The translations under genes and the position numbers were made by a program. Below are positions 18,612-64,000 of a stretch of DNA of 64,000 nt, one piece after another (position 1 is the stretch's first letter; each line of letters begins with the position of its first letter). The notes below the pieces were generated by a model. It did not search any database and was not told where the DNA came from. It worked only from the letters and a program-made list of their open reading frames with translations. The stretch spans positions 1,664,001 through 1,728,000 of the forward strand of contig OZ241981.1 in assembly GCA_965204345.1 (NCBI GenBank), in the 5' to 3' direction. The DNA is from Nitrosopumilus sp. (GTDB lineage: Archaea; Thermoproteota; Nitrososphaeria; Nitrososphaerales; Nitrosopumilaceae).

Positions 18612-18773
18612 GGTTCTGGCAAATTCCGGTGTTCATGCCATAAATCATAGATTCAGGAATCTGTGGACTGTACTTTGAGATTTTTTGATGACTGGGTAAT
18701 TTTTTTAAGAAAATCATCTCTTGCAATTCGCTTTTAAATTCCAGTGATCAGATCATCAAAACTTGCCAGAATC
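18612..18773. mobile_element. Short IS6-like miniature element (~160 bp)
   Basis: Imperfect terminal inverted repeats GGTTCTGGCAAATT... / ...AACTTGCCAGAATC; last ~38 bp recur inside the 320-bp MITEs; a further end GGTTCTGTCAAGT at 18595. Confidence 0.6.
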
Positions 18774-18816
18774 CCTTTAGATATAGATTTTATACTGATT
18801 AATTCACATCAAGTTA

Positions 18817-34262: not shown

Positions 34263-35384
34263 ATGAGAACTGATTCAAATTTGAAAAGATCTGAATACCC
34301 TCAAGCATCAATGAGAAGATTGTCGTTAAGACCCCTCTTTCCAACAAAAAACGATATTGGACTTTTTGTTGGACGAGAAAAAGAAATGAATGTAATAGAA
34401 TCTTGTATGCGAAATCGGCTAAATTTGCTTTTGGTTGGAGAAAGAGGAACAGGTAAAACCTCGTTGCTAAATTATACTTATTACAAAACAATAAAAATTG
34501 ATAATGTTGTTGGAGTACTAGTAAACATTCTACCCAAATCTATTTCAGACACATCTAGTTTTCTTAATTTAGTCTTAGATTCCACTTTGGATGAAATAAG
34601 ACATAAGCACTTTGCAGAACAATTTTTTAGCGAATTTGATACTAGACGAACAAATGATGTCTTTATTGCATTTAATTCAATAATCACTATCTTAAAACAA
34701 CATAATGTTGAAGTTGTATTTTTAATTGATGGATTTGATCATCGTGTTGAACTTTGTTACAGAATAATGAGTTCATTACGTGAAGTTTTTTGGCAAACAG
34801 AATTTCCTGTAATTATGACAGGTGATTCAAATAAAATTAATGAATATAGAAGACCTCCATTAGATGCATTTTTTGATAAAAAACTAGAGCCGCAGCCTTT
34901 AAGCTCTGATGAAATAATGAAATTGTTTGAATTAAGACTCGGAAAAAAATATCTAGATAAAACCTCTGCAAATACACTGGCTGAAAGAACCGAATCTAGT
35001 ATAATCGATAAAATTTTGTTAGTGAAAGAATTTTTTGAAAAAAACCCAAAAACTAGAAAAATACTTTTATCTAAACTAGAACCAAAATCTGAAAAAAATA
35101 TGTCTATGGATACTTTAAATCAAAAAACCATTCTCAAAGTGTTTGAATCTTCTTTAGTGCATTTGTCTCCTGCAAAAAAAGAAATTTTACGGTATATTCG
35201 TATTAATGGACCCAGTTCAGCATCAGATAAGGAATTCCAGAAATATATGGGCGTATCTCGTTCCAGATTAACTCAAATGTTATTGTCATTAAGTAAAAAT
35301 GAAATACTGATGAAAAGCAAGGATGCTAAAAAAAGGAAAACTCTATTTGGAATATCTGATGAAATAAAAAGTAGATTTACATGA
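34263..35384 (+). CDS. P-loop/AAA ATPase with C-terminal winged helix-turn-helix
   Basis: FVGREKE, Walker A GERGTGKTS, Walker B FLIDGFD; C-terminal LSPAKKEILRYI..GVSRSRLTQMLLSL wHTH; very AT-rich. Confidence 0.85.
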   Translation: MRTDSNLKRSEYPQASMRRLSLRPLFPTKNDIGLFVGREKEMNVIESCMRNRLNLLLVGERGTGKTSLLNYTYYKTIKIDNVVGVLVNILPKSISDTSSFLNLVLDSTLDEIRHKHFAEQFFSEFDTRRTNDVFIAFNSIITILKQHNVEVVFLIDGFDHRVELCYRIMSSLREVFWQTEFPVIMTGDSNKINEYRRPPLDAFFDKKLEPQPLSSDEIMKLFELRLGKKYLDKTSANTLAERTESSIIDKILLVKEFFEKNPKTRKILLSKLEPKSEKNMSMDTLNQKTILKVFESSLVHLSPAKKEILRYIRINGPSSASDKEFQKYMGVSRSRLTQMLLSLSKNEILMKSKDAKKRKTLFGISDEIKSRFT

Positions 35385-36445
35385 CTAAAAATACCCTATT
35401 GCATGAATTATTGGAAAATGATGCCTTTAAACATACTACTATCCCAATCAATGAACTCCCATATCTTTATGAACCATTTGAAAAAATTTCTAACAAAAAG
35501 ATAGAAACAAAAATAATTAGTAGCATCCAAAAAAATCATGTAATAATCATAAAATCTGATGGTGGTACGGGTAAAACATGTGCTGTAAATTATTCTCTAT
35601 TGCAATTACAGGATGATATTTTTCCAATAGTGCTTAGTCCATTTATGGAAGAAGTTGATGAGGTCTGTAACTCAACAAAAGAATTTACTAGATTTGTTTT
35701 GAATCAAACATTACATGCAGTCAAAAATTTTTCAAATTTGTCAAAAGATACTGAAAAAAAGGTACGTGATGCACTCGCAATTGAAACATCTTTTATAGAA
35801 TCAAAAAAATATAGTATTGGAGGTTCTTTTAGAGCTGCCTTTTCAATTCTTCCATTTATTGCAAAAGTCGAAGCAGGAGTAAAAGCGGATTTAGAAAACT
35901 ATGCCTCTAAAGCAATAAAATCAAAAATATTCAACACTCAACGAATTGAAGCAATACGCGGGTTATGTGAAACAATTGAAGCTCATAATCTAAAACCTGT
36001 TTTCTATATTGATGATACTGACAAATTTTTGAAGAGAGAAGATCTAGATTTATCTAAATTAGTTCCTAAGTTTTTTGGGCAAATTTTGTTAGGACTTATT
36101 AAATTAGACAGACCTCTAATTTTAGCTGCTCATGCATATTATACAAAATCTGCTTCTTACAGAGATGCAGAAAGTAACTATGTTGATCAAGTAATAATCT
36201 TGCCTGAATTAAATAAGACCGGAATAATTTCTTTGATAAATACCAGAATTAAGGCAGTTGATAGTTCTAAAAACATAAAAAATGTTTTTGAAGATAATGC
36301 AATAAAGTCATTAATCAAATATTACAATTCGAAAAAAATTATTAGAAACCTAATGCTTATCTGTCAAGAAAGTATTGATCTTGCTGATTCTCAAGGAACA
36401 AAAGTCAGTAAAAGCATGGTTGATTCGTTTATAGTTGGAAAATAA
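35381..36445 (+). CDS. Second P-loop ATPase, translationally coupled (ATGA overlap)
   Basis: Walker A SDGGTGKT, Walker B FYIDDTDK, IRNLMLIC lid-like segment. Confidence 0.82.
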   Translation: MTKNTLLHELLENDAFKHTTIPINELPYLYEPFEKISNKKIETKIISSIQKNHVIIIKSDGGTGKTCAVNYSLLQLQDDIFPIVLSPFMEEVDEVCNSTKEFTRFVLNQTLHAVKNFSNLSKDTEKKVRDALAIETSFIESKKYSIGGSFRAAFSILPFIAKVEAGVKADLENYASKAIKSKIFNTQRIEAIRGLCETIEAHNLKPVFYIDDTDKFLKREDLDLSKLVPKFFGQILLGLIKLDRPLILAAHAYYTKSASYRDAESNYVDQVIILPELNKTGIISLINTRIKAVDSSKNIKNVFEDNAIKSLIKYYNSKKIIRNLMLICQESIDLADSQGTKVSKSMVDSFIVGK

Positions 36446-36672: not shown

Positions 36673-37026
36673 ATGGGTGATATCAAGCAAGTTATTGTTG
36701 TTAGGACTGATCTTGAGATGGGCAAGGGCAAAATTGCCGCTCAGGTGGGACATGCATGTGTTCTTGGGGCAGAGCATGTTAGAAGATCCCATCCCAAATG
36801 GCATAGTGAGTGGTGGGGAGGACAAGAAAAGGTGGTAGTCAAGGTTCCTGGCATCAAGGACTTGCAAGAGATAAAAAAGCACGCAATTGACTTGAATCTT
36901 CCATGGTCTGAGGTATCTGATGCTGGTCATACCCAGCTGGCTCCTGGCACAGTAACCTGTATCTCTATTGGGCCTGCCCCAGAAGACCTGATTGACAAGA
37001 TTACCGGAGATCTAAAATTACTGTAA
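36673..37026 (+). CDS. pth2: Peptidyl-tRNA hydrolase Pth2
   Basis: KQVIVVRTDLEMGKGKIAAQVGHA, DAGHTQ, IGPAP, DKITGDLKLL. Confidence 0.97.
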   Translation: MGDIKQVIVVRTDLEMGKGKIAAQVGHACVLGAEHVRRSHPKWHSEWWGGQEKVVVKVPGIKDLQEIKKHAIDLNLPWSEVSDAGHTQLAPGTVTCISIGPAPEDLIDKITGDLKLL

Positions 37027-37042
37027 TGTGCATTATTTTTTG

Positions 37043-37362
37043 TGGTCTGTTGCGTTCATGAGGATAGACACGAATCTGTTTGATCGCACAAGTTTTAATC
37101 AAGACCTACAAACGACACTGGTAAATTCCAGTGATCAGATCATCGAAACTTACCAGAATTGTCCGTTGCATTTACCGTGTTCATCTTAAAATCATCAAGA
37201 TTTGCTTTGATGTGGTTGTTTTCTCTAGTTCCTTGATCAATATCGGAGAAATAATCTCAATACACTAAATGAACATCAGTTTGAAAATCAGAAAACGCCC
37301 TAAGATTCAACAATGTCCCAAATTTATCTCTCGTGCCTATCCCTCATAAACGCAACAGAATC
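37043..37362 (+). mobile_element. IS6-like MITE, copy 1 (~320 bp)
   Basis: ~32-bp TIRs (TCTGTTGCGTTCATGAGG..CACGA / TCGTG..CCTCATAAACGCAACAGAATC); ~95% identical to the reverse complement of 47379-47699; no transposase ORF. Confidence 0.9.
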
Positions 37363-37369
37363 GCCATAC

Positions 37370-39556
37370 TTGAATTTAAAACTTACATTACCGATCATTG
37401 TTTTTGCACTAGTACTTTTATTCGTGTATCCCTTAGAGTCTATATCCCAAACTGATGAGAATGAACAGTTTACAGTGCCAGACAATCTTATCCCAGATGA
37501 CAGTACATTAGGTCCTGTTGCAAACGTGGATGTACCATCCAAGTTTGATGGCGGCTTTTATGACAAAATCCTGGGTCTCATATCTGAGGTACCTCAGGAT
37601 GGTGACTATGGGGTACATGACGGCACGCGATACTATGATGTCCTAATTATAGTGGCCAGAGGCGATGGGGACGATGGCATAGATGCAGATGAGACAGCAC
37701 GCGAGAACAAGTATGCAATTGCAGAGAAACTTGATCTTCTTGGCGCACGCAACATAGCATCTGCAGAGTCACTCTCATTTGTAACTGCATCTATCCCAGT
37801 TGCAGATGTTCCGGGGCTCTCACTTTATGACGAGATATATGCCATGGGAGATGGTGAAATTCCCGTGACTCTGGAGATTGATACGGTTAGGGGAACCGTA
37901 CATGCAACTCCAAACGAGATTAATACTGCAACTGATACCAATCTTGATGGCAGTGGAGTTGTTGTGGCAATCATTGACAGAGGCATCAACCACGATATTG
38001 CATTTAACGACAGAATCATTGACCGTGTAGAGTGCGATGATACGTGTGAGCCTGCAACTGCTGCCAGTGTGATCGGCGTTAATAGTAATAATGATCTTTC
38101 TACTGCTTTTGCATCCCATGGTACGCATATAGCCCAAGTCCTTGCCGCATCAGGACTCCCAGCTCATAACGGCATTGCGCCCGGTGTGGAACTTTTGGAT
38201 GCCTCAATTACTAGGCATACTGTTGATAACGATAAGAATCGTACTTTCGTTAATGCAAACAGAAATGACGTGGCACATGCCCTTGACTGGTCTCTCAAAA
38301 AAGGAGCCGACATGGCAGTCATGAGTTTTGGTTTTGGAATCTGCAATGGAGATTATGGAAAGACAACCAACCTCATCACAAATGAGGCAGTTGACAAGGG
38401 AATGGTTCTAGTATCATCTGCAGGAAACAGGGGCATAATTTATGGAGCGCCAAACCAGCCAGTTTATCAGTCTATAACTCATCCCGGATGCGGACACAAT
38501 GAAATTACCGTAGGCGGAATAAATGATCGTGGTGAAACAATATCAAAGGCAAGCTTTGCAAGCAGGGGTCCAGCACCCGGAACAGTCATGCTAAAGCCCG
38601 AGATAGTTGCACCTGCACAGCGTCTTCAGACACTGGACAATGTTGCAGAAGATGACAATTTTAGTCCTCGGTCCGGAACCAGCCTTGCTGCTCCCCAGGT
38701 AAGTGCAACTGCTGCCCTGTTGCTACAGGCAAAACCTGATCTGACTCCAGTTGAGATAAAGACCATACTTCTTCTTGGGGCTGACTGGCAGGGTCCAATC
38801 CCTTGCACGTCTGTACAATATGAAACAAACAATCCCAACGACAACTGTTCTTATGCCAGACAGCCATCTAACACTGTTGAGAGAAACAATTCTGAATCCC
38901 TTCAAATACTAAACAATGTGGGCTTTGGCATACTAAACACTGGAGAGTCACTTAGGTATGTTCACAGTGAATCATCATCATCATCTCATGTAATGTCAGA
39001 TCATCTCAAGTCAGATACGCATACAAAGCAGTATGAGTTTACAGTACAGGACACATCAAAACCAGTCAAAGTGATACTGTCATGGCTAGTTCATCCCCAT
39101 GGCAGTATAACCGGACAGTTGGGTCATACTGATACAGCAGTTCCTATTGCGAACCTAGATTTTACAATAACTACTCCAAATAATGCTACAATACGGGCAA
39201 CATCAGACCATCAGACAAACGAGTTTGCAGTGTTTGCCCCCACTCGCACCGGAACATACACCATAACACTTAGCGGCTCAGACATTGGTGACATAAACAA
39301 GTCGGTACAAAACTTTGCGCTGGCAAGTACCAACCCTCTTACACTTGTAGGTGACAGTATACTAGATAGAAAAATAGAGAGACACATCTCTACACAAACC
39401 AGAATTACAGATATCGCAGAAGATATTAAACAGTTAGAGCAAAAATTACAGGATAAAAAAGACAAGATAGAAGAACTAGACTCGTTACTTTCTGAGATTT
39501 ATCTACAAATTATAGAGTTGGCCCCTGTTGGTTACGAACTTCCATTCAAGGATTGA
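37370..39556 (+). CDS. Secreted S8 subtilase with C-terminal beta domain and coiled-coil tail
   Basis: Signal peptide from TTG 37370 (the ORF-track start lies inside the MITE); IIDRGI, SHGTHIA, SAGN, GTSLAAPQV. Confidence 0.88.
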   Translation: MNLKLTLPIIVFALVLLFVYPLESISQTDENEQFTVPDNLIPDDSTLGPVANVDVPSKFDGGFYDKILGLISEVPQDGDYGVHDGTRYYDVLIIVARGDGDDGIDADETARENKYAIAEKLDLLGARNIASAESLSFVTASIPVADVPGLSLYDEIYAMGDGEIPVTLEIDTVRGTVHATPNEINTATDTNLDGSGVVVAIIDRGINHDIAFNDRIIDRVECDDTCEPATAASVIGVNSNNDLSTAFASHGTHIAQVLAASGLPAHNGIAPGVELLDASITRHTVDNDKNRTFVNANRNDVAHALDWSLKKGADMAVMSFGFGICNGDYGKTTNLITNEAVDKGMVLVSSAGNRGIIYGAPNQPVYQSITHPGCGHNEITVGGINDRGETISKASFASRGPAPGTVMLKPEIVAPAQRLQTLDNVAEDDNFSPRSGTSLAAPQVSATAALLLQAKPDLTPVEIKTILLLGADWQGPIPCTSVQYETNNPNDNCSYARQPSNTVERNNSESLQILNNVGFGILNTGESLRYVHSESSSSSHVMSDHLKSDTHTKQYEFTVQDTSKPVKVILSWLVHPHGSITGQLGHTDTAVPIANLDFTITTPNNATIRATSDHQTNEFAVFAPTRTGTYTITLSGSDIGDINKSVQNFALASTNPLTLVGDSILDRKIERHISTQTRITDIAEDIKQLEQKLQDKKDKIEELDSLLSEIYLQIIELAPVGYELPFKD

Positions 39557-40437
39557 ATTTTTTATTTAATGTGTGCATCAAGATAACAAATGTCTGATGC
39601 ATCCAAACGACTGCATCCTGTGATTAATAGTTTGCAAAAATCAAAAATATACCATAAATTAAACTCTTAGCAAATAAATTATTAGATTAGTTATTGATAT
39701 CTGCTGTCAACAGGTTACAGCTGTCTAATAGTCCAAAGTAAAACTATCAAGGACATTGCAAGCTCCATACCTCACTAGAGTCAGATTACATATGAGAATC
39801 TTTTTGCAAGGAACACTCCGCAGCTGGCTGAATCAAGAGGGATGCTTGTCACCCACATCGCAGATTCGCTTGAAGAGATTGCAATTGACTAAAATGACCT
39901 GCCCATAGTGTTTTAATCAGCACTTTGGAAAGTCATTTTTGCTTCCCATAGATGTCATTTTGGGCTGGACCCTGACTAATGAAAAAAGGCAAAGGGCATT
40001 TAGCAAGCTAGGGGGGGGACACAATTGTCGTAAAAATCAAGGAACAGAAATTGGATTTAAAATACACAAAGGATTGATCTTGTCAGGTTTTCTCAGACAG
40101 TTGCTGGAAAATTTTTCCAACAGATCTATTAGTGATAAAGAGAACGTTGGGTTGGTGTCTGAGAACAACAAACAGAGGTGTGTTTGTGGTCAGACTTACC
40201 AGATGAGCTTCAAAAAGATATAGAATTTGACGGATAGTTTGAAAAACCACAACATTCAAAAAAAGAGATCAAAGAGTGTTCCAATAAAATTGCAGCACAG
40301 CCTAATGTGCATAAGAGATAGGATTCACTTGAAAAATTGATTCCTTTTGAGAATGTCCCCTGTTATGACTGCCACTGGGATTTGTGTCACAGGTGTATTG
40401 CCAATCTGGTTTATGTGGCGGCGGGTCATCTCTCTAT

Positions 40438-40544
40438 CAGGTTATACAGGCATTACCAAGTCCATTTACTGGCACTCAAATATATCTAATCTTTTTTCTT
40501 CTATCCACAGGTTATACAGGCATTACAAAGTCCATTTAATGGCA
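40438..40544. repeat. Two 37-bp direct repeats separated by 33 bp
   Basis: CAGGTTATACAGGCATTACMAAGTCCATTTAMTGGCA at 40438 and 40508, 35/37. Confidence 0.85.
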
Positions 40545-40569
40545 ATAGCAGACTTGTTTGTCCCAGCAA

Positions 40570-43500
40570 CTATGCAAATCCAAACAGGGATCTAAAAAAG
40601 TCTGTAATTACATCAAAGAAACCCTTTTGATCCTCGGAGATTCTCTGCGAATCTGCAGGCACACACTCTCCGCCTACCATCTGCGTTCCTGAGCTGCATG
40701 ATGACCCTTGATCATTACCAGTACCTGTGCCGGTTTGGGATGGTTCTGAATCGGTCACAGTCGTTGTCGACTTTATCTCTGTTTCTGCGGTTGGTTCTCC
40801 TGAGTCTGTCTTTTCACTCAAATCCGGTACCGGAGGTTCTGGCTTCATCCCTGTTTCTGCGGATGGTTCTGGGTCCATCTTTTTCATTCCTTCTTCTTCC
40901 TTCTCCTCCTCCCCCTCATTCAAACCTGGCACTTGTGGTTCTGGGTCCATTAGATTCTGGACTGCTCCAACCTGGGTATTGTTTGCAGGTATGCTTTGTT
41001 CTGGGGAATACTTGCCACTGCTTCCTCCACCACCGCCACCACCGCCACCACCGCCACCACCACTGCGGCTACTAGAAGGTGTGGATGGTGTAGGTTCTAC
41101 AGAAACCATAGAGAATGAGCCAAATGAGCTAAAGTGCGTGGTCCAGATGATCATATCAGGGCCGGCACGAACAAAACATGATTCCAATGTGGTGTCAGCA
41201 CCAATATTGTCATTGGCAGTATCCTGATTGACAGGAACAAACGGACATACAACCAGTGATCGTGATATCACATTGCCATCAGCATCGTTTCCTGAGAAGA
41301 AGGCACCCTCATGGCCTGCCTGGTCAGGCAAGAGTAACCTGACTGCCTGATCAAATGTTAATCTAGTGTTACCATCACCGACCGAGAATGCCAGTCCTAT
41401 CTCATCATTTGAGGTTGGAGGATCAACCGCAGTACCGGTAGTAGTAACAAGGGTTGGAACGGCAATGGTGCCACTCCAATCATCAGATGAGCCAGTTACA
41501 ACGACACTAGCTGGATAAGTGACAGTGACAGTTTGGGAATCAGAGACCTCAGAGGTGACCTCAGTTGTAGAATCAGAAATTCTCACACTCTTTGTTCCGC
41601 TTGCAGCATCATCAGCAAACGTTGGGGTGGCATTAAAGTCAAGCAGCTGGCCATCAGTGGCAATAATTGTGTCAGGTAATGTATCAGATACCACATTAAG
41701 GGTGATCAGATTTGAGGATGGCTCATATGTCACTACGCCACCATCGCCTCCAGAGGGAATATCGGCCTCAATTTCATCTCCTGTGGTGCTGATGGTGATG
41801 GTAACTGAATTAGATGCCTCATTGGGGTTGCCTGCAAGGTCTGCTGCCATACCTGCACCTATTGATACGGTTACTGTTCCGTCAGATGAGCCGCGAGCCA
41901 CATTAAAGGTGTAGACACTGCCTTCTCCGCCAATGTTGGATGCTGTCGGGGTACCACCGTTTACAGTACCAGTTACTGTAATGTCATCTAGATCAAAGTT
42001 CTCAATCTCCTCATCAAATGTTGTTGTAAACGTTACGGGGTCATCGCCAGTAATAGTACCATTGGCAGGCGTGATAGATACGGATGGGTTTACCATGTCC
42101 ACTGTAATAGTATGTACAGCACCCGTGTTGCCCCCTGCCACCACACCATCAGGTATGCTTACTGTAAGCTGACCCTCTCCAGTGATCCCGTGTATGACTG
42201 TAAAGTCGTATTGTGCACCACTGGTTCCATTAAAGTCAGTTATCAGGATATCTGGTGCCTGTGTCCTGCCAATTTCCACAACGACGGAATTTTCCCCTCC
42301 AAGATCAAGACTAATCTCAGAGTTAGATACCTGGGTTCCGTCAATTGCCACAACGATGTCAGACCGCTCAAATCCTGTGACATTGCCGCTAAATGTCGCA
42401 GTAAATGGGATGGCCTCAGAGTTGGTAGGATCAGATGTATCAGTACTCAGGGATACGGATGGGACAGTGGTGTCTATTCTAACGGTAACTGAATTAGATG
42501 CGGTGTTGGGGTTGCCTACAACATCTGCTGCCACTCCTGTTGCAACTGATACAGTTACGGTTCCATCAGATGATATACTTGCAACATCAAAGATGTATGT
42601 GCGGGCATCAACTGTCTCAAAGCCGGTTGCTTCAAGGATGCCGCCGTTGGCATCGCCTGCCACTGTAATGTCATCTACGATAAAGTCCCTAACGTCCTCG
42701 TCAAATTCTACTGTAAATGGTACCGTATCAAGTCCGGTGCTGCTGCCTGCAGACGAACTTACAGAGACAGTTGGGGCAAGGGTGTCTATGGTAACTGTAA
42801 CTGAATTTGACGCGGTGTTGGGGTTGTCTGCTGCATCTGTTAGCGCGTTTGCATCTATGGTTACGGTCACTGTTCCGTCTGTGGAGCCGCGTGCCACATC
42901 AAAGGTGTGGACACTGCCTGCTCCGCCAAGGTTGGATGCTATGGGACTGCCGTTATTTGCTGTACCCGTTACTGTAATGGCACCTAGACCAAAGTCGACA
43001 TCCTTGTTGAATGTTACCGTAAATGGTACCGTAGTTAGGTTGGTGCTCTCACCTGCAGTTGTAGTTACAGAGACGGTTAGGGGAATGGTGTCGGGATTGT
43101 CTGGAGGGTCTGTTGGATCTACATCTCTGACAGTAACTATCTGTGTAAGAGTTGCGGTATTTCCTGAATCATCAGTGGCAGTCCATACCACACTGTGTGT
43201 TCCAACGGCAAATGATGCAGTATCACTGGCAGTTACAGCAACAACGTCTGAATCCACTATATCAGTTGCAGCTGGCGCGCTTATTGATACGGGTGTAAGT
43301 TCTGCTGTGGCATCCACAGTTATTGGTGCAGGCTGTACTATTGTGGGAGGAGTGGTATCCTCCAGAGTTACAGTGCTAGTTGTTGTAGAGATATTTCCAG
43401 ATTCGTCAGTGGCAGTCCATACGATTATGGTATCACCCAGAGGAAACGATGCAGTTGCGTTGCTAGTTATGGTAAAAGGAAAGATATCTGTTACTGTGGG

Positions 43501-46500
43501 GTCTGCCAGCTGTATTGCAGTTAATGATGAGGTAGCCTCTGCTGTAACATTTTCAGGCTTTTGTATTACCGGTGGTGTTGTGTCTTGTACGGTTATCGTC
43601 TGTGCTGCAGTATCTGCGTTTCCTGCAGCATCTGTGGCAGTCCATGTAACTGTTGTGGAGCCAAGTGGGAAATTGTCTGGTGGTACGTCGTGAGTTATGT
43701 CAGGGCTTGGATCTGCATTGTCTGTAGCTGATGCCGTACCAGTATCAACAGGTGTACGAATGCCGGTAGCCTCTACAGTGAGATCAGCAGGAGCTGTAAT
43801 TACAGGTCTTGTGGTATCTGGAGGGTCAGGATTGTCGTCGCCGTCGTCACTAGTTATAAAAACATGAAACAACCCACTACCAAATATGCCAGATGTCGCA
43901 ATTATGCGAACAGGATAAGTGCCAACGGTGGCGTTATGCGGAGAGATGGTAATGTCTGCCGTACCACTACCAGTACGGGATATGCTGACAAAATCTGGGG
44001 CTTGTTCGAAATGCCACGAAATTGGTCTATTGTTGGGATGCGTTGCAGACACGCTTACAGTACGGGTCTCTCCGTTACGCAAAGTGATATCATCAATGGA
44101 TTCTATTACCGGAAATATACTTGGGATGAAGTTTGTGGTGGATGTGGGGCGTGACTGTGAATCACTTCCACCAAAGCCAAAATCAGAACCAACATAGGTT
44201 ACTGTAATTGGTGTATCATATGGAATGCCTGATGTCCTCAAAAACCTTGTGTCAGGGCTCCTCAAAATATTAGTGACCGAGGTGACTGTTCCATCAGACA
44301 GACTAAAATCACTTGATGTAAAATTAGTATAAAATTCTACAGGGAACTGTAGAATAATGGTGAAGGTAGTTGTCAATTCGGATGTAAATGTTAATGGTAG
44401 TGGTGAGATGTTAAAATTATCAATCTCTACGAATTCATTGTCTCTGTTTGAGTCTGCCACAAATCGCAGTAATGTCTGTGATTGATCACGTAGGTTAAGT
44501 GTCAGGGCTTCAGAGTGCCAGTTGTCGGTATTATTCCCATTGATACGAGTATATCGTTCCAGTGTTCTCCAGCTGAAATCTTCCAGATACTGCACATACA
44601 GACCTTCATCTGAGTTAATTCTCCTATCAACAAATCTATCAAAGGACACTACAAGTGGGTTTCCTGTGTCTATTGGCTGGTTAAGTCTAATAACACACTG
44701 GAAATCACAGTCTCTAGATGTTGCCACCGTATTGCCGCTAGCAGAACCTGGAATGGTTTTGTGGGCATTTTTTATCTCCCACACGCCATTGCCAGATTGG
44801 CTCCAATTATCAAGCGTGTTAAAACTGTCAGTCATTATGTTTGATGACGGGGGTGGATCGTTTGGGATTGCAAAGATCATGTGGTGAAGTATCATAATGT
44901 CATGTGAAGAATCATTGTCTGTACCTTCCCATGCAGTATAGAAATCTCCAAAACTACGGTATGGTCTATTCTTAAATACATCAATAATTTCATCATCGCC
45001 TAATTGCAGGTTATCTAAGTTAGTACCGTTACTGCTTTGTTCTAAATTGTCAAATATTTCATCAACGTTATGATCTTTGATATCCCATAGCGCTCCGGCT
45101 ACCTGTCCTTGAACTAATTGTCCAACAAGATGAACGTTATCTACTGGGAAAAAAGCTAAAAATCTATCATCATCAGGGAAGGACTCTAACCTGTCTTGCT
45201 CCAAATCAATACTACTAAAAGTGTCACGTTGGAAATTTGACGAATTGGTAACTAAATGAGGAACAAAATTAGCCCAACCTTCTGTCCATGCACATCTAGG
45301 ATTAGTTGGGAGATGAAGATAATGACCTCTCTCACCGACATCATCAAAATCGCCATCATTGTTTATATCAGTGTAACAAGGCTGACGCAGGAGTGGAAAT
45401 ACACCTTGTATATCCATAATATGGTGGCCAAATTCATGTAATATGATAAGTTTGCTTAAAGCCTGATCACTGGCAGAAGATCTCTCACCGTCAAGCCACA
45501 TAATGTTGGCTGATCGTAAATATGCAGCACCGTTACTGGCACTGTCTGGAAAAACACTAGCACCACTATCAGGCTCCCACTTTACAGTAAGCCTCTCAGG
45601 AGAAATACCGTGATGACTAAATAAATCACGACCATCAGAGATCGCATTGATTATACCGGCAGCTCTTGCATTACTGCCATTCAATACAAAATCAAACATT
45701 CTTGTATCCTGACTAAAGTTCAAAACTCTGGTAGATGATTCTGTATAAACACGTTGAGATAAACCTTCCACAACTAAATCACTTGCGCCCTTGGAACTAA
45801 CTCTGATAACTAGATCAACATTTGATGCATCAGAAGGATCATCATTTTGGATAGAATCTATGTGATATCCTCCCATGTTGGATGTAAATGTGCAGGCCCT
45901 GCTATTGTCAGTTGTAAACAATACGGTCTCTGTACCGTCAGATTCAGGATAATCATAGGCACAGACTTCTATCCCATTGATGGGTTCTGTGTTGTTGGAA
46001 AAATAAATTGGAGCAGATACAGAGCCTGTAATGGAAAAGGTGTTGGAAGAAGAGTCTTCTGCTGTTGCTGCTGCACCATCAGACGTCTCCTGAGTTGTAT
46101 CTACGGGGAATGCTGGGGCAGCAGCGGTATCTGTGGAGGAGCCGGTTGCCGCTGCTGTTACTGCACCATCAGATGTGTCATGAGGGCCAGTGTAATCTGC
46201 CTCGTATCTTTCCATTGCATCATCTACTTCCGCCTGCGTGAAATTAGAGTGACTCAAAATACTTTTTACATCATCCAATGGAAGAGATTTATCAACAAGC
46301 CATCCAATTAAATCATCATTAACTTTGCCAATATCATTGACAGCTATCTCGCCCAAAAGTTGCAGATGGTTGGCATATATTTCAGCTACTCTTTCCTCCG
46401 TCAAAATCTCATTAACTATCTCATCTTTGGGTCCTGGTTTATTGCCAAGTCTGCTATCTTTTTGAGGTGCAAAAGATTCAGGACTAGATGCACTAGCTAA

Positions 46501-47337
46501 AATGTCGTGATCCAAAAACGTGTATCCCTCATCCATATACTCATTTTCGGGCATAGAATGCTCATCAGATATTGCAAGGTAGACACCGCCACTGGATTCT
46601 AAAGGATCAAAGCGCAATGCATCAATTTCAATAAATCCCTCCTCTAGAATTTCTATAGTAACCATCACGGTATAAGCCCTGTCCGGCACGGGATCATCTA
46701 CTACATATCCGACATTATTATCAAATGACTCAAAGCTGGTTGGATCATCAGAGCCCGCATTTGTTGTGGCATCATCATGAAACAAAACTTTGTCATCGGG
46801 ATTGGTAAATACTTTTAGTGTGAATGGTTCCATGTATGGTTCAAAATTTATATTGTCAGTATAGACACCGGTAAAATTTACCAAGGCAGTCTGACCCACC
46901 TTGGGCAATTCTGAGAGTTCTAAAGAATAACTGTGTATAAGAATTCCCGACGATGATAACATTGAAGATTCTTTGTAATCAGCAATAATCTGCTTTTCTT
47001 TGTCAGTAAATACATGCGTGTCTGTCTGGCTTGTGATCTTTTTATTTAAGGACTCGTGAGCTTTTTGGGATGTTTCTGGTGTATATGCCGTCATGGTATA
47101 GCTGCTGCTGCCCCTGTCTACTAATTTCATCGCAGAATCACCAGTTAGGCAAACTGGCTTGCCTGCAAGAGTCACCATCAGAATCTTGCCGTCATTGCAC
47201 TGAATCATGTCCATTGGTATGCCTGCATGATGCTGGTCCAGTGGCGAGTCCGGGATTGCAGCATGTGTTGGCATCATCACTGCCACCATCATCACGGTAA
47301 CCAAAACCAAAAGTTTCGACACTGCGATTCCGGCCAT
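40570..47337 (-). CDS. Giant secreted/surface protein: Zn metalloprotease + MAM-like + HYR x3 + Ig-like x4 + C-terminal anchor region
   Basis: Signal peptide; ILHEFGHH...AWTEGWANF; DTTPPVI..P..TVEAT (HYR); FTVTF..V..F...DITV (bacterial Ig-like); poly-Gly linker; amphipathic GFFDVITDFFRSLFG tail. Confidence 0.85.
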   Translation of the reverse strand: MAGIAVSKLLVLVTVMMVAVMMPTHAAIPDSPLDQHHAGIPMDMIQCNDGKILMVTLAGKPVCLTGDSAMKLVDRGSSSYTMTAYTPETSQKAHESLNKKITSQTDTHVFTDKEKQIIADYKESSMLSSSGILIHSYSLELSELPKVGQTALVNFTGVYTDNINFEPYMEPFTLKVFTNPDDKVLFHDDATTNAGSDDPTSFESFDNNVGYVVDDPVPDRAYTVMVTIEILEEGFIEIDALRFDPLESSGGVYLAISDEHSMPENEYMDEGYTFLDHDILASASSPESFAPQKDSRLGNKPGPKDEIVNEILTEERVAEIYANHLQLLGEIAVNDIGKVNDDLIGWLVDKSLPLDDVKSILSHSNFTQAEVDDAMERYEADYTGPHDTSDGAVTAAATGSSTDTAAAPAFPVDTTQETSDGAAATAEDSSSNTFSITGSVSAPIYFSNNTEPINGIEVCAYDYPESDGTETVLFTTDNSRACTFTSNMGGYHIDSIQNDDPSDASNVDLVIRVSSKGASDLVVEGLSQRVYTESSTRVLNFSQDTRMFDFVLNGSNARAAGIINAISDGRDLFSHHGISPERLTVKWEPDSGASVFPDSASNGAAYLRSANIMWLDGERSSASDQALSKLIILHEFGHHIMDIQGVFPLLRQPCYTDINNDGDFDDVGERGHYLHLPTNPRCAWTEGWANFVPHLVTNSSNFQRDTFSSIDLEQDRLESFPDDDRFLAFFPVDNVHLVGQLVQGQVAGALWDIKDHNVDEIFDNLEQSSNGTNLDNLQLGDDEIIDVFKNRPYRSFGDFYTAWEGTDNDSSHDIMILHHMIFAIPNDPPPSSNIMTDSFNTLDNWSQSGNGVWEIKNAHKTIPGSASGNTVATSRDCDFQCVIRLNQPIDTGNPLVVSFDRFVDRRINSDEGLYVQYLEDFSWRTLERYTRINGNNTDNWHSEALTLNLRDQSQTLLRFVADSNRDNEFVEIDNFNISPLPLTFTSELTTTFTIILQFPVEFYTNFTSSDFSLSDGTVTSVTNILRSPDTRFLRTSGIPYDTPITVTYVGSDFGFGGSDSQSRPTSTTNFIPSIFPVIESIDDITLRNGETRTVSVSATHPNNRPISWHFEQAPDFVSISRTGSGTADITISPHNATVGTYPVRIIATSGIFGSGLFHVFITSDDGDDNPDPPDTTRPVITAPADLTVEATGIRTPVDTGTASATDNADPSPDITHDVPPDNFPLGSTTVTWTATDAAGNADTAAQTITVQDTTPPVIQKPENVTAEATSSLTAIQLADPTVTDIFPFTITSNATASFPLGDTIIVWTATDESGNISTTTSTVTLEDTTPPTIVQPAPITVDATAELTPVSISAPAATDIVDSDVVAVTASDTASFAVGTHSVVWTATDDSGNTATLTQIVTVRDVDPTDPPDNPDTIPLTVSVTTTAGESTNLTTVPFTVTFNKDVDFGLGAITVTGTANNGSPIASNLGGAGSVHTFDVARGSTDGTVTVTIDANALTDAADNPNTASNSVTVTIDTLAPTVSVSSSAGSSTGLDTVPFTVEFDEDVRDFIVDDITVAGDANGGILEATGFETVDARTYIFDVASISSDGTVTVSVATGVAADVVGNPNTASNSVTVRIDTTVPSVSLSTDTSDPTNSEAIPFTATFSGNVTGFERSDIVVAIDGTQVSNSEISLDLGGENSVVVEIGRTQAPDILITDFNGTSGAQYDFTVIHGITGEGQLTVSIPDGVVAGGNTGAVHTITVDMVNPSVSITPANGTITGDDPVTFTTTFDEEIENFDLDDITVTGTVNGGTPTASNIGGEGSVYTFNVARGSSDGTVTVSIGAGMAADLAGNPNEASNSVTITISTTGDEIEADIPSGGDGGVVTYEPSSNLITLNVVSDTLPDTIIATDGQLLDFNATPTFADDAASGTKSVRISDSTTEVTSEVSDSQTVTVTYPASVVVTGSSDDWSGTIAVPTLVTTTGTAVDPPTSNDEIGLAFSVGDGNTRLTFDQAVRLLLPDQAGHEGAFFSGNDADGNVISRSLVVCPFVPVNQDTANDNIGADTTLESCFVRAGPDMIIWTTHFSSFGSFSMVSVEPTPSTPSSSRSGGGGGGGGGGGGGSSGKYSPEQSIPANNTQVGAVQNLMDPEPQVPGLNEGEEEKEEEGMKKMDPEPSAETGMKPEPPVPDLSEKTDSGEPTAETEIKSTTTVTDSEPSQTGTGTGNDQGSSCSSGTQMVGGECVPADSQRISEDQKGFFDVITDFFRSLFGFA

Positions 47338-47378
47338 AAATAGTGGTGGGTATGCTTTATTATTAATGATAACAACGC

Positions 47379-47699
47379 GGTTCTGTTGCGTTCATGAGGG
47401 ATAGGCACGAGAGATAAATTTAGGATATTGTTGAATCTTGAGGCGTTTTCTGATTTTCAAACTGATGTTCATTTAGTGTAGTGAGATTATTTCTCCGATA
47501 TTGATCAAGGAACTAGAGGAAACAACCACAACAAAGCAAATCTTGATGATTTTAAGATGAACACGGTAAATGCAACGGACAATTCTGGTAAGTTTCGATG
47601 ATCTGATCACTGGAATTTACCAGTGCCGTTTGTAGGTCTTGATTAAAACTTGTGCGATCAAACAGATTCGTGTATATCCCTCATGAACGCAACAAAATC
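47379..47699 (-). mobile_element. IS6-like MITE, copy 2 (inverted)
   Basis: TIRs GGTTCTGTTGCGTTCATGAGGGATAGGCACGA and (rc) GATTTTGTTGCGTTCATGAGGGATATACACGA, 28/32; GGTTCTGTTGC matches the IS257/IS431-type IS6 terminus. Confidence 0.9.
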
Positions 47700-47743
47700 G
47701 TTTTTTGGAATAAGATATAACAAGGTTCCTTATTTTTTCCTGT

Positions 47744-49345
47744 ATGAAGACTAAAGGCGTCATTGTAACCATCTTTTTTGGATTTATTCTGCTCTCTTCT
47801 ACTGTGCTTATCACTCTGCCTGGCATTGTTCCTGAAGATGAATCTGCCGAAGTTACAATTACTGGAACTCCCGCTGATAACTTTCCTGATGCGCAACGTG
47901 GACAATTTTGTGGCTCTAGTGATGCAAAATCCACAAAGTATGTTCAAGAATTTTCAATTCCCACAATGTGCACAAACCCATTAGCTATAGTGACTGATTA
48001 TGATGGAAATGTCTGGTTTACTGAAACTAATACTGGCAACTTGGCAAAATTTGATCCTACTACTGAATCTTTTACCGAATACCAGAATCCCTCGTGGCCT
48101 GACGGTGGACGTTCCATGATGTGGGGTATTGACTATGCCCCTGATGGCAATGTCTGGTTTACTGATGAATCCTATGATTCAGTATGGAAGTTCTCCACAA
48201 TTGATGAGACTTATGACAGATTGGCATATCCTTCTGAAGGAGACTCTTTGCCTCAGAAATTAAAAATTGATGGCTCTCAAATTATTATAAATGATTTTAC
48301 TGGAAACAAGCTCACCTTTTTAGATCCCAGTCAGTCCGGCGAGGATATCAACTATCTTAGCATTCCCTCCCCAGTAGATGATTCTGTAACCGGTGACTTT
48401 GCAATAGATGCAGATGATAATGTCTGGTTTACTAATTGGCTCTTTCAACAGGGCGGTGTCCTGGTAAAATTTGATCAGATTGGCTATCGTGATTCTGTCG
48501 TAAGTTCTAATGAACAATTCCTTCCATTGCTTGATTTCATTGAAATCCATGAGCTGCCTGTGGAATTAAACACCCCTAATGGTGCCATAGTTGATGATGA
48601 CGGGTTTGTCTGGTTGGCCGATACCACATCGTCTTCCTTCTTTAGTTTTGATCCCGTGGCTGAACAGTTTACCCACTATGTTACCTCTGATCCTGTATTG
48701 AGTACATATGGAAACCAAACAGGAGTTGTAAAATCCCCAATCTCTAGGCCCTATTGGATTGAGTCTGATGGACAGGGACGCATTATTTTCAACGAACAGA
48801 CTGCAAACAACATCTCCGTAATGGACCCAAAATCCCAATCACTTGTTGAATATCACGTTCCCTCAAAAAATCCATACTGGGGTGACTGTGATCCTGGGAC
48901 CGGCATTATGCTAGCTGACTGTGGCGTTGCCCAAATCTTTGATTTTGCAGTTGATGGCGAAAAAATTTGGTTTACAGAGTGGGTTGAGAATAATATTGGT
49001 GTTGTTGATACTTCTGTGCCATTGCCAATGGAAATTCAATTGGAATCTGACGAACTGACTTTGGCATCCGGGGATTCTGCACACTTTAACTTTATTGTAT
49101 CCCCATTATCTAATGATAATGATGATGATCTGGATGTAACATTGATTTTATCCCCCGCACACAAGTTCTTACAGGTAGCCCTTGATCATGATAGCGTTGA
49201 ATCCTTCCGGCTTGACTCCAATACCCCTGTTCATATCTCAATAACTGCATCTGAGAATGCCGAGCCTGGCACCTACAAGATTCTTCTTGGCGCACAATCC
49301 CCGGACATTGCAATCAGCAAGTATGTAACAGTGACAATAGAGTGA
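47744..49345 (+). CDS. Membrane-anchored beta-propeller, virginiamycin B lyase-like
   Basis: Repeated DGNVWFT blades; N-terminal TM. Confidence 0.83.
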   Translation: MKTKGVIVTIFFGFILLSSTVLITLPGIVPEDESAEVTITGTPADNFPDAQRGQFCGSSDAKSTKYVQEFSIPTMCTNPLAIVTDYDGNVWFTETNTGNLAKFDPTTESFTEYQNPSWPDGGRSMMWGIDYAPDGNVWFTDESYDSVWKFSTIDETYDRLAYPSEGDSLPQKLKIDGSQIIINDFTGNKLTFLDPSQSGEDINYLSIPSPVDDSVTGDFAIDADDNVWFTNWLFQQGGVLVKFDQIGYRDSVVSSNEQFLPLLDFIEIHELPVELNTPNGAIVDDDGFVWLADTTSSSFFSFDPVAEQFTHYVTSDPVLSTYGNQTGVVKSPISRPYWIESDGQGRIIFNEQTANNISVMDPKSQSLVEYHVPSKNPYWGDCDPGTGIMLADCGVAQIFDFAVDGEKIWFTEWVENNIGVVDTSVPLPMEIQLESDELTLASGDSAHFNFIVSPLSNDNDDDLDVTLILSPAHKFLQVALDHDSVESFRLDSNTPVHISITASENAEPGTYKILLGAQSPDIAISKYVTVTIE

Positions 49346-61411: not shown

Positions 61412-61515
61412 TTTATTCATTTGATAATTGATTGTGTGTTTTACTCTATTTGTTTTATCAAAATCACTAATTTGTACTTAAATTCATTACTTTAATTCTT
61501 TCCTAGTTCATACAC

Positions 61516-61587
61516 TTCAAAGGGTTTGTGCTACAAACACTGTGAGCTTGCAGTCTCAAGTGTTGTTCAAAGGGTTTGTGCTACAAA
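61516..61587. repeat. Two perfect 22-bp direct repeats separated by 28 bp
   Basis: TTCAAAGGGTTTGTGCTACAAA at 61516 and 61566; internal dyad TTTGT-GCT-ACAAA. Confidence 0.9.
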
Positions 61588-62929
61588 GATACGCATGCTT
61601 ATATGATGTTTCACACTCCTTTTCAGGCATTATAAACAAGTATATCTGAAATTTCAGAACTGGTATCATTTTTTTATAGAATAATTTGGCATATTTTTTA
61701 TGAAGGAGCTGGTAGCAATGATCAGTCATTGTGTCATTATGGCAGAATTTCGAATTAAAAAAAGGCTCAAAATATGAAATCCGTGCCGAGACCCAAGGGG
61801 GCACAAAGGTATGAATGAGTTTGACAACCTAATCATAAAATCCGTGAAAAAGACAATCAGAAAAGATTTTGGCGATGTTGGAAACATGGTATTTCTGGAA
61901 ATAAATCTCAAAGAATTTGCTTGGGAAGTTTGTTTGAAAAACACCCAATCGTTATACTTTGGATTCTATTTTTTTACATCTATGCATAAATTAACACAGA
62001 TATCTGAAAACAAGTCAGGTTTTCCTGCAACATATCTACAGAAATTTCGCTAGTCGTTGTATAGTCTTTGATTCCTTTGCTTTTCTTACAAAACTAGAGG
62101 GTTTTGCTATCAATTCATCTGAATATGACGGATGCTTGTTCTCTCTGGGTATAACTTTTCTAGGTTTCCAAGGATTTCTAAAAAAAGGTGATGCCCTGAT
62201 GGCAATCTGTTACTGTATATCCCACTTTTTGTGTTTTTTTAATTCATTTACCACAAAAGCTGTAGAAATAAACCGCTTTGGTTTATGGACTTTGTATGAT
62301 GTTCACTTGATTGTGATTTCTGATCAGCGGTGTTGCTCATTGCAAATCTTCCAAATATCTGGTCATCTCAAAATTTGATTTTTTTTCTGCTTGTACAAGT
62401 ATTAAATCCGAAAATAATGAAAAAACTCTATCATTTACCAAACGTCCGTTTTTTCCTAAAAATTTTAAAACAAATTTGATTGTCTGACCATTCCAAGTGT
62501 TCCCCTCATAACTAATTTATCTGGATGCGACCCCTGTCTTTGATAATCTTTTTTGAGTTTTTTAAACCACCCTTCAATCTCTGGACTTTCCTTGGTCTGT
62601 TTTTATTTTTTGATACATAACATAAATGTCAGATGCGTTATTTGCAAAATTTTTGAGTTTTTCTAGGTTTCTTAGGGCATACTGCTAGATGACCTAACGC
62701 TTATGCGGATGCGGCGCTTTGAGGATTGTGCTTTTCTCAGAGTTATTTGAGCCTACTATGACATTTGGTTTTCCAAAATTTGTCTGATATTCCTCGTTAA
62801 AACACCCAAAATTTTTTATTTTTATAAAATCCGGCACAAGGGTCATTTTGTCTTCTCTGCCATACTGTTCGGATCTGATTACACTGTTAACTAGATCATC
62901 TCATAATTAAAAAGAGGGTGCCAGATATG

Positions 62930-64000
62930 TCATCCACACGTGCAGGTGGTGAAACTGATTTTTACATCGTCAATTTGTATGTCCTCGTTGAAGCTATCCT
63001 GCTGGGTTACAAACCGCAAATTAAAATCAGACACTCCAATGTATTCTGACAAGTCAAATGATTCTTCGTGCCATGTGCCGTCATTGCCTTTACTGTTTGC
63101 AGACCAGTCGTATATGGTGTCCCATGTCCTGCCATTATACAGCTCTACTTTGAGATACTCGTCTTCACCTAGTGCCGAGTCAACGAATCTCCAAAATGAC
63201 AGGGATGCCGAAGGGTGTGACAGATCCATTGGATCATCTGGGATGAATGTGCCATTCCTGATGCCCTCTACCCTTGTTTTGATTTCTTGTGGCATGTCTA
63301 TTGGATTATCTAGGGCGATTGTACAGGAGTTCACACATTCATCAGCGTGCAGTACCGGATTGGTTGAGTTATGGCCAGGTGCTGGTGAGACAAAATGCTT
63401 TTTTGGTGTGGATATTATCCAGTCGTCTTGGCCAGTTTGAGTCCAGTCGTCCAGTCCGTCTTCAAAGTTATCTGAAAATATGGGCGGGATTTCGGATGGT
63501 GGACGAGGAGGGTCGTTAAGCTCATATTTTACATTTATGCCCCATTCGTTGAGTGTCCCAACATCCCCTATTTCATAGTCCCCTACTGAGAGAACCCAGT
63601 CGCCTTTAATGTAGGATTTTTCAAGCACATCAAATAATGGAGCAGTATATGTCTGTCTGATGTACTCAGCACTGTAGTCACTGTCGTCACTGTTCTCATG
63701 AAGGATAATCTCTGTTCCGTTTGGAGATGTAAGAACTAGTTTAAGATCATTAATGTGGGTATGTGTAATGTCTACTGATACAGATAAATCAGCTAGCTCT
63801 CCGTTTGTCGGGATGGTTATGGTACTAGTCGTATTCTGATTTCTCGTATTGTCCGGTATTGCAAAAGTGGAGAATGCTGTTGACTGGTATGTAGAGTATG
63901 GAGAACACGGGTCTGTAGGACATTGTACTAGAAAGTATTCGACACCCATCTCGACATCGTTGAGATTAGGTGCAGTAGAATTACCCACGTTATTTGGAGT
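62930..64000 (-). CDS. C-terminal part of a secreted protein with a proprotein-convertase P-domain and a MAM-like domain (5' end outside window)
   Basis: VSVDITHTHINDLKLVLTSPNGT..GDWVLSVGD..GTLNEWGI (P-domain); FSDNFEDG..LSFWRFVD..IQIDDVKI; frame open to window edge. Confidence 0.85.
   Translation of the reverse strand, partial: TPNNVGNSTAPNLNDVEMGVEYFLVQCPTDPCSPYSTYQSTAFSTFAIPDNTRNQNTTSTITIPTNGELADLSVSVDITHTHINDLKLVLTSPNGTEIILHENSDDSDYSAEYIRQTYTAPLFDVLEKSYIKGDWVLSVGDYEIGDVGTLNEWGINVKYELNDPPRPPSEIPPIFSDNFEDGLDDWTQTGQDDWIISTPKKHFVSPAPGHNSTNPVLHADECVNSCTIALDNPIDMPQEIKTRVEGIRNGTFIPDDPMDLSHPSASLSFWRFVDSALGEDEYLKVELYNGRTWDTIYDWSANSKGNDGTWHEESFDLSEYIGVSDFNLRFVTQQDSFNEDIQIDDVKISFTTCTCG

Follow-up and report, generated by a model that had tools for sequence, protein, structure and literature searches.

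Cassettes that are bounded by terminal inverted repeats (TIRs) and lack a transposase are known from Bacillus as 'mobile insertion cassettes'. In Acinetobacter, pairs of MITEs (transposable elements of the miniature inverted-repeat type) flank class 1 integrons and blaPER-1 (Gillings 2009, Domingues 2011 and Zong 2014, cited in PMC10969869). Here, a 10,657-bp block of the archaeon Nitrosopumilus sp. (assembly GCA_965204345.1) is described, which occupies positions 37043-47699 of a 64,000-nt stretch of contig OZ241981.1 (positions 1,664,001 to 1,728,000; hereafter the window) and carries a subtilase gene and a gene for a large predicted surface protein between two inverted MITEs. As in the Acinetobacter units described in PMC10969869, two non-autonomous TIR elements bracket passengers that are thought to be moved in trans, and no transposase lies inside. 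In contrast to these units, the block is archaeal, its MITEs have an IS6-like parent with 8-bp duplications and only one copy of it is known; instead of resistance genes, the cargo is a predicted host-interaction protease/adhesin module. The principle of MITE-pair mobilisation is already known from Acinetobacter. New in the present case are the domain and phylum to which the host belongs, the IS6-like origin of the MITEs, their inverted orientation with a single duplication outside the pair, and the kind of cargo.

A second group of related systems is found among the insertion sequences (ISs) of the IS6/IS26 family. The pseudo-compound elements Tn610, Tn4003 and Tn2680 described in PMC7986276 share with the block a related transposase domain (PF13610, encoded here by the cognate element), 8-bp duplications, ends of the type GG....G and a passenger between two copies. 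However, they consist of full IS copies in direct repeat, and their cointegrates are resolved by recombination, whereas the block has inverted MITEs and an outer direct repeat. ISs with passenger genes (tIS) are represented in the IS6 family by one case, ISDsp3, as given in PMC7986276. The tIS and the TIR-bounded cassettes have counterparts in the genome studied here, i.e., a 6.26-kb element with methylase and ResIII genes and two TIR-bounded elements of 17-19 kb; the block differs from all of these in that a complete MITE stands on either side, where they have only one pair of ends.

For archaea, Harmer and Hall advocate in PMC6807381 that the 'IS6' elements should be split from the family, and state that no experiments on archaeal IS6-like elements exist. 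In PMC6563490, a 2019 survey of the integrated mobile elements of 20 thaumarchaeal genomes, composite DNA transposons with passengers were reported as undetected in archaea, also in thaumarchaea. The main text of that survey does not contain the word MITE; its supplementary tables and those of PMC6790972 may already list related transposases. In open-access papers and preprints, a full-text search on thaumarchaeotal MITEs gave one paper, which is unrelated. The block speaks for a transposon with passengers, a type with few records from archaea, and, together with the 6.26-kb restriction-modification element, would fill this gap.

An inserted block bounded by two inverted MITEs

The block lies between two housekeeping genes, pth2 and a lyase-like gene. 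Its boundaries and flanks are as follows:

36673..37026, + strand: pth2, peptidyl-tRNA hydrolase, left flanking gene (PF01981, 141 bits)
37035..37042: ATTTTTTG, the left of the two 8-mers that form the putative target duplication, from flank comparison
37043..37362, + strand: MITE1-L (L), 320 bp; A end outward; outer terminus TGGTC (consensus GGTTC)
47379..47699, - strand: MITE1-R (R), 321 bp; A end outward; outer terminus GATTT; inner B end identical to the consensus
47700..47707: GTTTTTTG, the right of the two 8-mers that form the putative target duplication, abutting the conserved promoter motif of the lyase-like gene
47744..49345, + strand: Vgb-lyase-like beta-propeller gene, right flanking gene (PF24684, 68 bits)

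First, the two MITEs were compared with each other. Global alignment of L with the reverse complement of R yielded 305 identical columns out of 321 (95.0%), with 15 mismatches and one gap column. These 16 differences equal the number that had been estimated by eye in a sequence-only reading of the window, and a repeat search of the window likewise returned L and R as an inverted pair. Each copy possesses its own TIRs of about 32 nt, as that reading had also proposed; they span 33 nt with 88% complementarity in R and are visible in the alignment in L. A 23-nt TIR core matched three times in the window (≤3 mismatches) vs. zero times in each of 100 shuffles. The A end (...CACGAATCTGTTTGATCG) points outward and the B end (...CACGAGAGATAAATTT) points to the cargo in L and R alike, so that like ends of both copies indeed face outward. 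Within the MITE1 family of seven copies, L and R are mutual nearest copies, with a core identity of 96.6% as compared to at most 93.2% between L and the five other copies. Of the 16 differences, four are located at the very start of the outer termini, where the five leading bases read TGGTC in L and GATTT in R (consensus GGTTC).

Second, the flanks of the block were inspected for a target duplication. The outer flanks ATTTTTTG and GTTTTTTG match at 7/8 positions, which corresponds to the direct repeat claimed beforehand, given that the L terminus is read as TGGTC. When the two flanks of each MITE were compared, L scored 1/8 and R 0/8. Thus, one duplication surrounds the pair and none surrounds either MITE, as is characteristic of a composite transposon, with the T-richness of the 8-mer as a caveat. 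Of all + strand 8-mers in C1, the 2.04-Mb main contig, only 0.155% differ from GTTTTTTG by no more than one mismatch.

Third, the site was examined in relatives. Among 24 other genomes of the same genus searched for pth2, the gene was found in 22, and in all 22 the lyase-like gene follows directly downstream, with no MITE, subtilase or large gene in the spacer. Therefore, the 10,657-bp block is an insertion, and the empty site that the sequence-only reading had suggested looking for is present in each of these 22 congeners. The spacer measures about 45-60 nt in 20 of them and ends with the conserved promoter-like motif GGAATAAGATATAAC; the two most distant congeners have a longer, GC-rich spacer. 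If a single copy of the 8-mer is kept, 16 nt separate the pth2 stop codon from GAATAAG (before GAATAAGATATAAC), a length that also occurs in two relatives (loci L034 and L046), and the context of a T-run followed by GG (T-run-GGAATAAG) is common to L046 and L051. If both 8-mers are kept, a tandem T6G motif results, which is present in 0/22 congeners.

Fourth, contigs of four public runs from four studies were compared with the locus; such contigs drop rare variants. Runs in which the locus occurs are labelled sponge metagenome, metagenome or a coded organism. A contig of 579-585 nt bridges pth2 and the first 49-55 nt of L with 0 differences in each of the four runs. On the right side, at a minimum of 31 nt, three runs join the outer end of R (42-56 nt of it) to the lyase-like gene, and the fourth run reaches 24 nt. 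The inner junctions are bridged in three runs for R and in one run for L; the B end specific to each copy leads into the large gene and the subtilase, respectively, without a single difference. Since the outer pieces are both A-end sequence, a single MITE could not give them. No joint skipping 37043-47700 was found among the joints listed.

The MITE1 family and its cognate transposase

The genome comprises 2.12 Mb on nine contigs. It contains seven full-length MITE1 copies at 87-97% identity, and a search with the 26-nt terminus revealed 24 ends. The family consensus terminus GGTTCTGTTGC begins with GG and has a G at position 7, which is the rule given for bacterial members of the IS6 family in PMC6807381. 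The termini of a 6,259-bp element (C1:1027168-1033426) agree in all 26 nt, and the 8-bp duplication around it is perfect (GACTGTTA), as is that of the MITE at C1:1436992 (GTACAAAG). The flanks of a 17.2-kb element match at 7/8 and those of another MITE at 6/8. Besides the studied unit, the 8-bp duplication characteristic of IS6 (PMC7986276) was thus seen as 8/8 at two elements and as 7/8 at two pairs.

The sole intact cognate transposase, with 381 aa and N-terminal zinc-binding motifs, is encoded in the 6.26-kb element (C1:1027507-1028652). It matches the IS240/IS6-type DDE domain PF13610 with 34.2 bits (cut-off 27). Its NCBIfam match to NF033587, the best of seven families, reaches 79.6 bits and stays below the IS6 equivalog cut-off of 125. 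Likewise, IS6 elements measure 700-890 bp and have a short transposase, whereas the intact copy is 6,259 bp long and encodes 381 aa. The proposed IS6 parentage thus agrees with the PF13610 domain, the 8-bp duplication and the GG termini, but not with the NCBIfam score or the length, and the element is referred to here as IS6-like. A further copy of 1.12 kb encodes the transposase without its first 165 codons. Homologues of the transposase numbered 533 at E ≤ 1e-5; all 120 of those listed carry PF13610, and the few named ones are from ammonia-oxidising archaea.

The ends of MITE1 agree with those of the 6.26-kb element at 24/26 positions of the termini, and at 64/81 nt of the A end and 43/51 nt of the B end. 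With 321 bp, TIRs, seven copies, no transposase, ends shared with the 6.26-kb element and one perfect 8-bp duplication, MITE1 has the properties of a MITE and appears, from these comparisons, to have arisen by deletion from an IS6-like element present in the genome. Both the copies and the matching transposase that the sequence-only reading had called for were thus located. In a BLAST search against 150 other genomes of the genus, MITE1 gave only internal matches of 41-54 nt in three genomes, and an exact scan of 185,579 species genomes with the 22-nt TIR core gave 0 matches (own genome possibly left out).

The other genes of the 6.26-kb element encode a 98-aa Cys-rich open reading frame (ORF), an N6/N4 DNA methylase and a ResIII helicase/nuclease, and the element is, as judged from its predicted genes, apparently a passenger-carrying transposon with a restriction-modification system. 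In a search for its empty site, the flanking gene was found in just 1/25 other genomes, and no frame spans the junction.

A second family, MITE2, has a length of about 165 bp and the ends GGTTCTGG...CCAGAACC. It gave 52 BLAST matches and 17 near-full copies in the genome, and target duplications were not evident in these 17 copies. MITE2 shares an internal motif of about 25-40 nt with the 321-bp MITE, and several paralogs of the large gene have a MITE2 copy immediately upstream of their promoter. One copy is in the window (18612-18774, - strand); elsewhere in the genome, MITE2 is found at about 50 further places. At C1:567.5 kb, the A terminus of a MITE1 copy is replaced by MITE2-type sequence, i.e., a hybrid element.

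Larger structures with the same termini were also observed. A 17-19-kb element with the same TIRs occurs in two copies (C1:467422-484655 and C1:582156-600865), the flanks of which match at 7/8 and 5/8, respectively. The two copies are 97.9% identical over the first 5.4 kb, with homology beginning 9 nt before the TIR, and the 17.2-kb copy carries one ORF of 5,325 aa. An A end and a B end located 71 kb apart (C1:431364/502302) have the flanks GGAAAAAC and GGTAAAAC, which match at 7/8, and enclose the 17.2-kb element and many giant repeat genes. An empty site of this 71-kb pair was not seen in 15 relatives' loci, where the left-flank genes were not within 1.5 kb of the right-flank gene. Two MITE copies (C1:1436992-1439987 and C1:2013632-2019513) adjoin a common sequence of about 2.7 kb, which at the latter place is found on both sides of the MITE in inverted orientation.

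Proposed mechanism and competing explanations

The block is probably a transposase-free composite transposon that was inserted as one unit. In the proposed mechanism, an IS6-like transposase supplied in trans, putatively the 381-aa zinc-finger DDE protein, would act on the two outward-facing ends of the block. The whole block would have entered the 8-bp target (A/G)TTTTTTG, located 8 nt after the pth2 stop codon and beside the promoter motif of the lyase-like gene, and an 8-bp staggered cut with a single insertion would have duplicated the target. The passengers would represent one of the many amplified copies that the genome has of a module with genes for a subtilase and a HEXXH/HYR surface protein. 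For the earlier claim of a 10.7-kb unit mobilised in trans, the insertion, the MITE pair, the flanks and a cognate transposase were all found, and we infer movement as one unit from them. The unit would now be immobile because both outer termini are mutated (TGGTC, GATTT), which agrees with its presence in all four public runs; it is probably fixed.

Several observations weigh against insertion as one unit. The 7/8 match depends on reading the L terminus as TGGTC, a two-base variant of GGTTC; if the terminus is read with a 1-nt deletion instead, the in-register match drops to 5/8. The duplicated 8-mer is T-rich, and T-runs also adjoin other family members (GAATTTTG, GCATTTTG, GATTTTTC), so that the match is weaker evidence than 7/8 suggests. 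Duplications are absent or poor in 4/10 family members, namely the copies at 187k and 1199k and the 1.12-kb IS (none) and the 18.7-kb element (5/8). No second copy or donor of the unit was found in the genome, so that its mobility is putative; no empty-site or alternative-site allele occurred among the joints listed for the four runs, the contigs of which hide rare alleles. The end of MITE2 coincides within 0-2 nt with the position of the inner end of R in 4/8 paralogous loci, and lies within about 20 nt of it in two more of the eight. Finally, L and R are inverted and hence lack the direct repeat of IS6 compound structures. As described in PMC7986276, functional compound transposons of IS6/IS26 require direct repeats, and with inverted copies the process would halt at the cointegrate. 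The chemistry behind an inverted pair should therefore be a different one, and a two-ended chemistry differing from that of IS6/IS26 is possible. Since an inverted pair with one outer duplication is not predicted by IS26-type cointegration, the block provides a concrete mechanistic hypothesis.

The alternative that best withstands these data, although unlikely, is stepwise assembly. A solo MITE1 would have arrived first and made the 8-bp repeat; the cargo and the second MITE would have followed by an end-targeted transposase reaction (like the conservative one of IS26) or by homologous recombination between MITE copies, and one MITE would have been flipped. The coincidence of the inner end of R with the MITE2 end (0-2 nt, 4/8 loci) suggests precise end-for-end exchanges; such an exchange between related elements is one possibility for its origin, and a simple insertion of a MITE near a gene fails to explain it. 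The hybrid MITE1 copy (567k) with its MITE2-like terminus, the arrangement of the paralog modules as MITE2-gene-MITE2-gene in direct orientation, like pseudo-compound arrays, and the fact that canonical IS6 chemistry, as set out in PMC7986276, disfavours inverted composites also speak for this route. However, both kinds of reaction yield direct copies, so that at least one extra event is needed, and no intermediate (solo MITE or direct-repeat version) was seen in the 22 relatives or in the contigs of the four runs. In addition, L and R are both complete elements.

It is improbable that the flank match is due to chance and that the block came by illegitimate recombination or segmental duplication, with the MITEs as passengers or breakpoints. 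Such an origin would be in keeping with a T-rich 8-mer in an AT-rich spacer, with the region being a hot spot in which the gene module was duplicated as 14-kb segments, and with the 4/10 family members that lack clear duplications. Yet the boundaries of the insertion are exactly two outward TIR termini, homology to the paralogs stops at the inner MITE ends and not past the outer ones, and few C1 8-mers match this well (0.155%, see above). Moreover, if both T6G copies were ancestral, the spacer would have measured 24-25 nt and contained the tandem motif that is missing from all 22 relatives.

Intramolecular replicative transposition of one MITE in trans, a reaction of the IS26 type described for the IS6 family in PMC7986276, would invert the DNA between the copies and give two inverted, mutually closest copies such as L and R. 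The flanks contradict it and make it very improbable: the inverted duplication it predicts is absent, both between the inner flank of L and the outer flank of R (GCCATACT vs. CAAAAAAC) and between the outer flank of L and the inner flank of R (ATTTTTTG vs. GCGTTGTT). It also cannot put 10 kb of non-native DNA into a conserved spacer of about 50 nt. Inversion by recombination between L and R was rejected likewise, as the predicted reverse-complement relations of the flanks are absent. As considered in the sequence-only reading, the inverted copies could also flip the cargo. An assembly artefact, in which repeats misplaced the cargo between pth2 and the lyase-like gene, is barely credible: the public contigs do break inside the MITEs and no single listed one spans a whole MITE, but independent contigs of four studies show outward A ends on both sides of the site, the copy-specific B ends join the subtilase and the large gene with 0 differences, and the window contig is 2.04 Mb long.

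A wider scheme can also be sketched, which is tentative and rather doubtful. One IS6-like zinc-finger transposase might run the whole hierarchy of elements in this genome, i.e., the 6.3-kb restriction-modification transposon, the 321-bp and the roughly 165-bp MITEs, the 17-19-kb cassettes (the 17.2-kb one with its single giant surface-protein gene) and the MITE-flanked composite, and might be the engine by which the protease/adhesin genes of a host-associated archaeon multiplied. If so, archaeal 'IS6' enzymes would perform simple two-ended insertion of long DNA, not cointegration of the IS26 type.

Cargo genes, their paralogs and neighbouring genes

The interior of the block has the following features:

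37370..39556, + strand: S8 subtilase, 728 aa (PF00082, 123 bits); TTG start; hydrophobic N-terminus; D/H/S motifs
39557..40569: spacer between the convergent genes; no family match, no TIR-like remnant
40570..47337, - strand: 2255-aa predicted secreted/surface protein; WING-49 N-terminus, HEFGH domain, HYR and Big_12 repeats, low-complexity C-terminus
47338..47378, - strand: 41 nt with the large gene's own promoter and its AT-rich box, kept and common to paralogs

The translation of the subtilase contains the catalytic motifs IIDRG, HGTH and SGTS, as expected for S8. Its TTG start codon at 37370 is located 7 nt inward of L. An in-frame ATG within L (37313-37369) would add 19 codons before the TTG. 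In 9/9 paralogs of the subtilase, a TATA-like box precedes the start codon by about 24-32 nt; the subtilase of the window has L sequence at this position. The native promoter is gone and was not found across L either. Since L displaced it, the subtilase must be transcribed from MITE sequence or by read-through. The loss of the promoter fits a MITE that was first inserted at a donor locus, from where it took the gene along.

The large gene starts at 47337 (- strand), 41 nt inward of R, and both cargo genes read inward. H195, E196 and H199 of its HEFGH motif are invariant in 8/8 aligned homologues. No match to the HEXXH region was found in Pfam (E up to 10), NCBIfam or PDB sequence searches. In a Foldseek search, the top 16 hits were all M4 thermolysin-like zinc proteases (best E 4.7e-4) with template modelling scores of only 0.22-0.39, and the structure model of the region has low confidence (mean predicted local distance difference test score of 57.7). 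The 2255-aa protein is probably a zinc protease/adhesin, as suggested by the motif and the modelled fold. Of the two inward-reading secreted proteases that had been proposed, the subtilase and the inward orientation were thus recovered, whereas the term metalloprotease rests only on the invariant HEXXH and a weak fold match.

Parts of the spacer 39557..40569 have paralogous counterparts in the sequence that adjoins other large genes at their 3' side. Two small ORFs starting in it had no Pfam match, and a search of it for TIR remnants with up to six substitutions found none. Across the block, no PF13610 match was obtained and four small ORFs that were tested had no Pfam family, which is in line with the claim that the block is free of a transposase. 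Rfam and tRNA scans of the locus gave no match. The GC content of the cargo is 43.9%, as compared to 37-38% in the flanks.

Both cargo genes have paralogs in the genome: there are at least nine for the subtilase (64-84% amino-acid and 78-89% nucleotide identity) and several full ones for the large gene. Relatives of the subtilase in other genomes of the genus are at most 56% identical. The cargo is thus home-grown and consists of diverged paralogs (about 88-89% nucleotide identity) of a family that has expanded in this genome. The closest copy of the gene pair (C1:161.7-171 kb, 85-90% nucleotide identity) is arranged in tandem rather than convergently. The search for identical cargo at other loci, another check proposed beforehand, was negative in this genome, where paralogs reach only about 88-90% nucleotide identity. 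Similarity to the paralogs sets in a few bases at most from the inner end of either MITE.

Modules of about 14 kb, each comprising a large HEXXH/HYR gene, MITE2 and a subtilase, occur in three copies that are 91-97% identical, one of them inverted. They are located at window positions 61511-64000 and on to C1:1739053, at C1:1759422-1774142 and at C1:1840443-1854616, and their homology ends inside the upstream MITE2.

The cargo has the same make-up as the protease set of a sponge-associated ammonia oxidiser described in PMC6790972, which has 11 subtilisin-like genes of type S08A as well as an exported metalloprotease of 2027 aa that contains hyaline (HYR) repeats, and in which transposases and restriction-modification systems are enriched. 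The account of these proteases in PMC6790972 does not link their expansion to MITEs or transposons, and the M72 assignment made there had no Pfam match here. The block would tie the protease/HYR expansion of sponge-associated ammonia oxidisers reported in PMC6790972 to a specific means of gene movement.

Two observations concern the surroundings of the insertion site. Just upstream of pth2 (34263-36445), a gene pair has weak matches to AAA/STAND ATPases and DEAD-helicases, which are below the Pfam cut-offs. In other families of the order (loci L054-L060), pth2 is directly followed by truD in 4/7 loci, and the lyase-like gene between pth2 and truD therefore appears to be specific to the genus.

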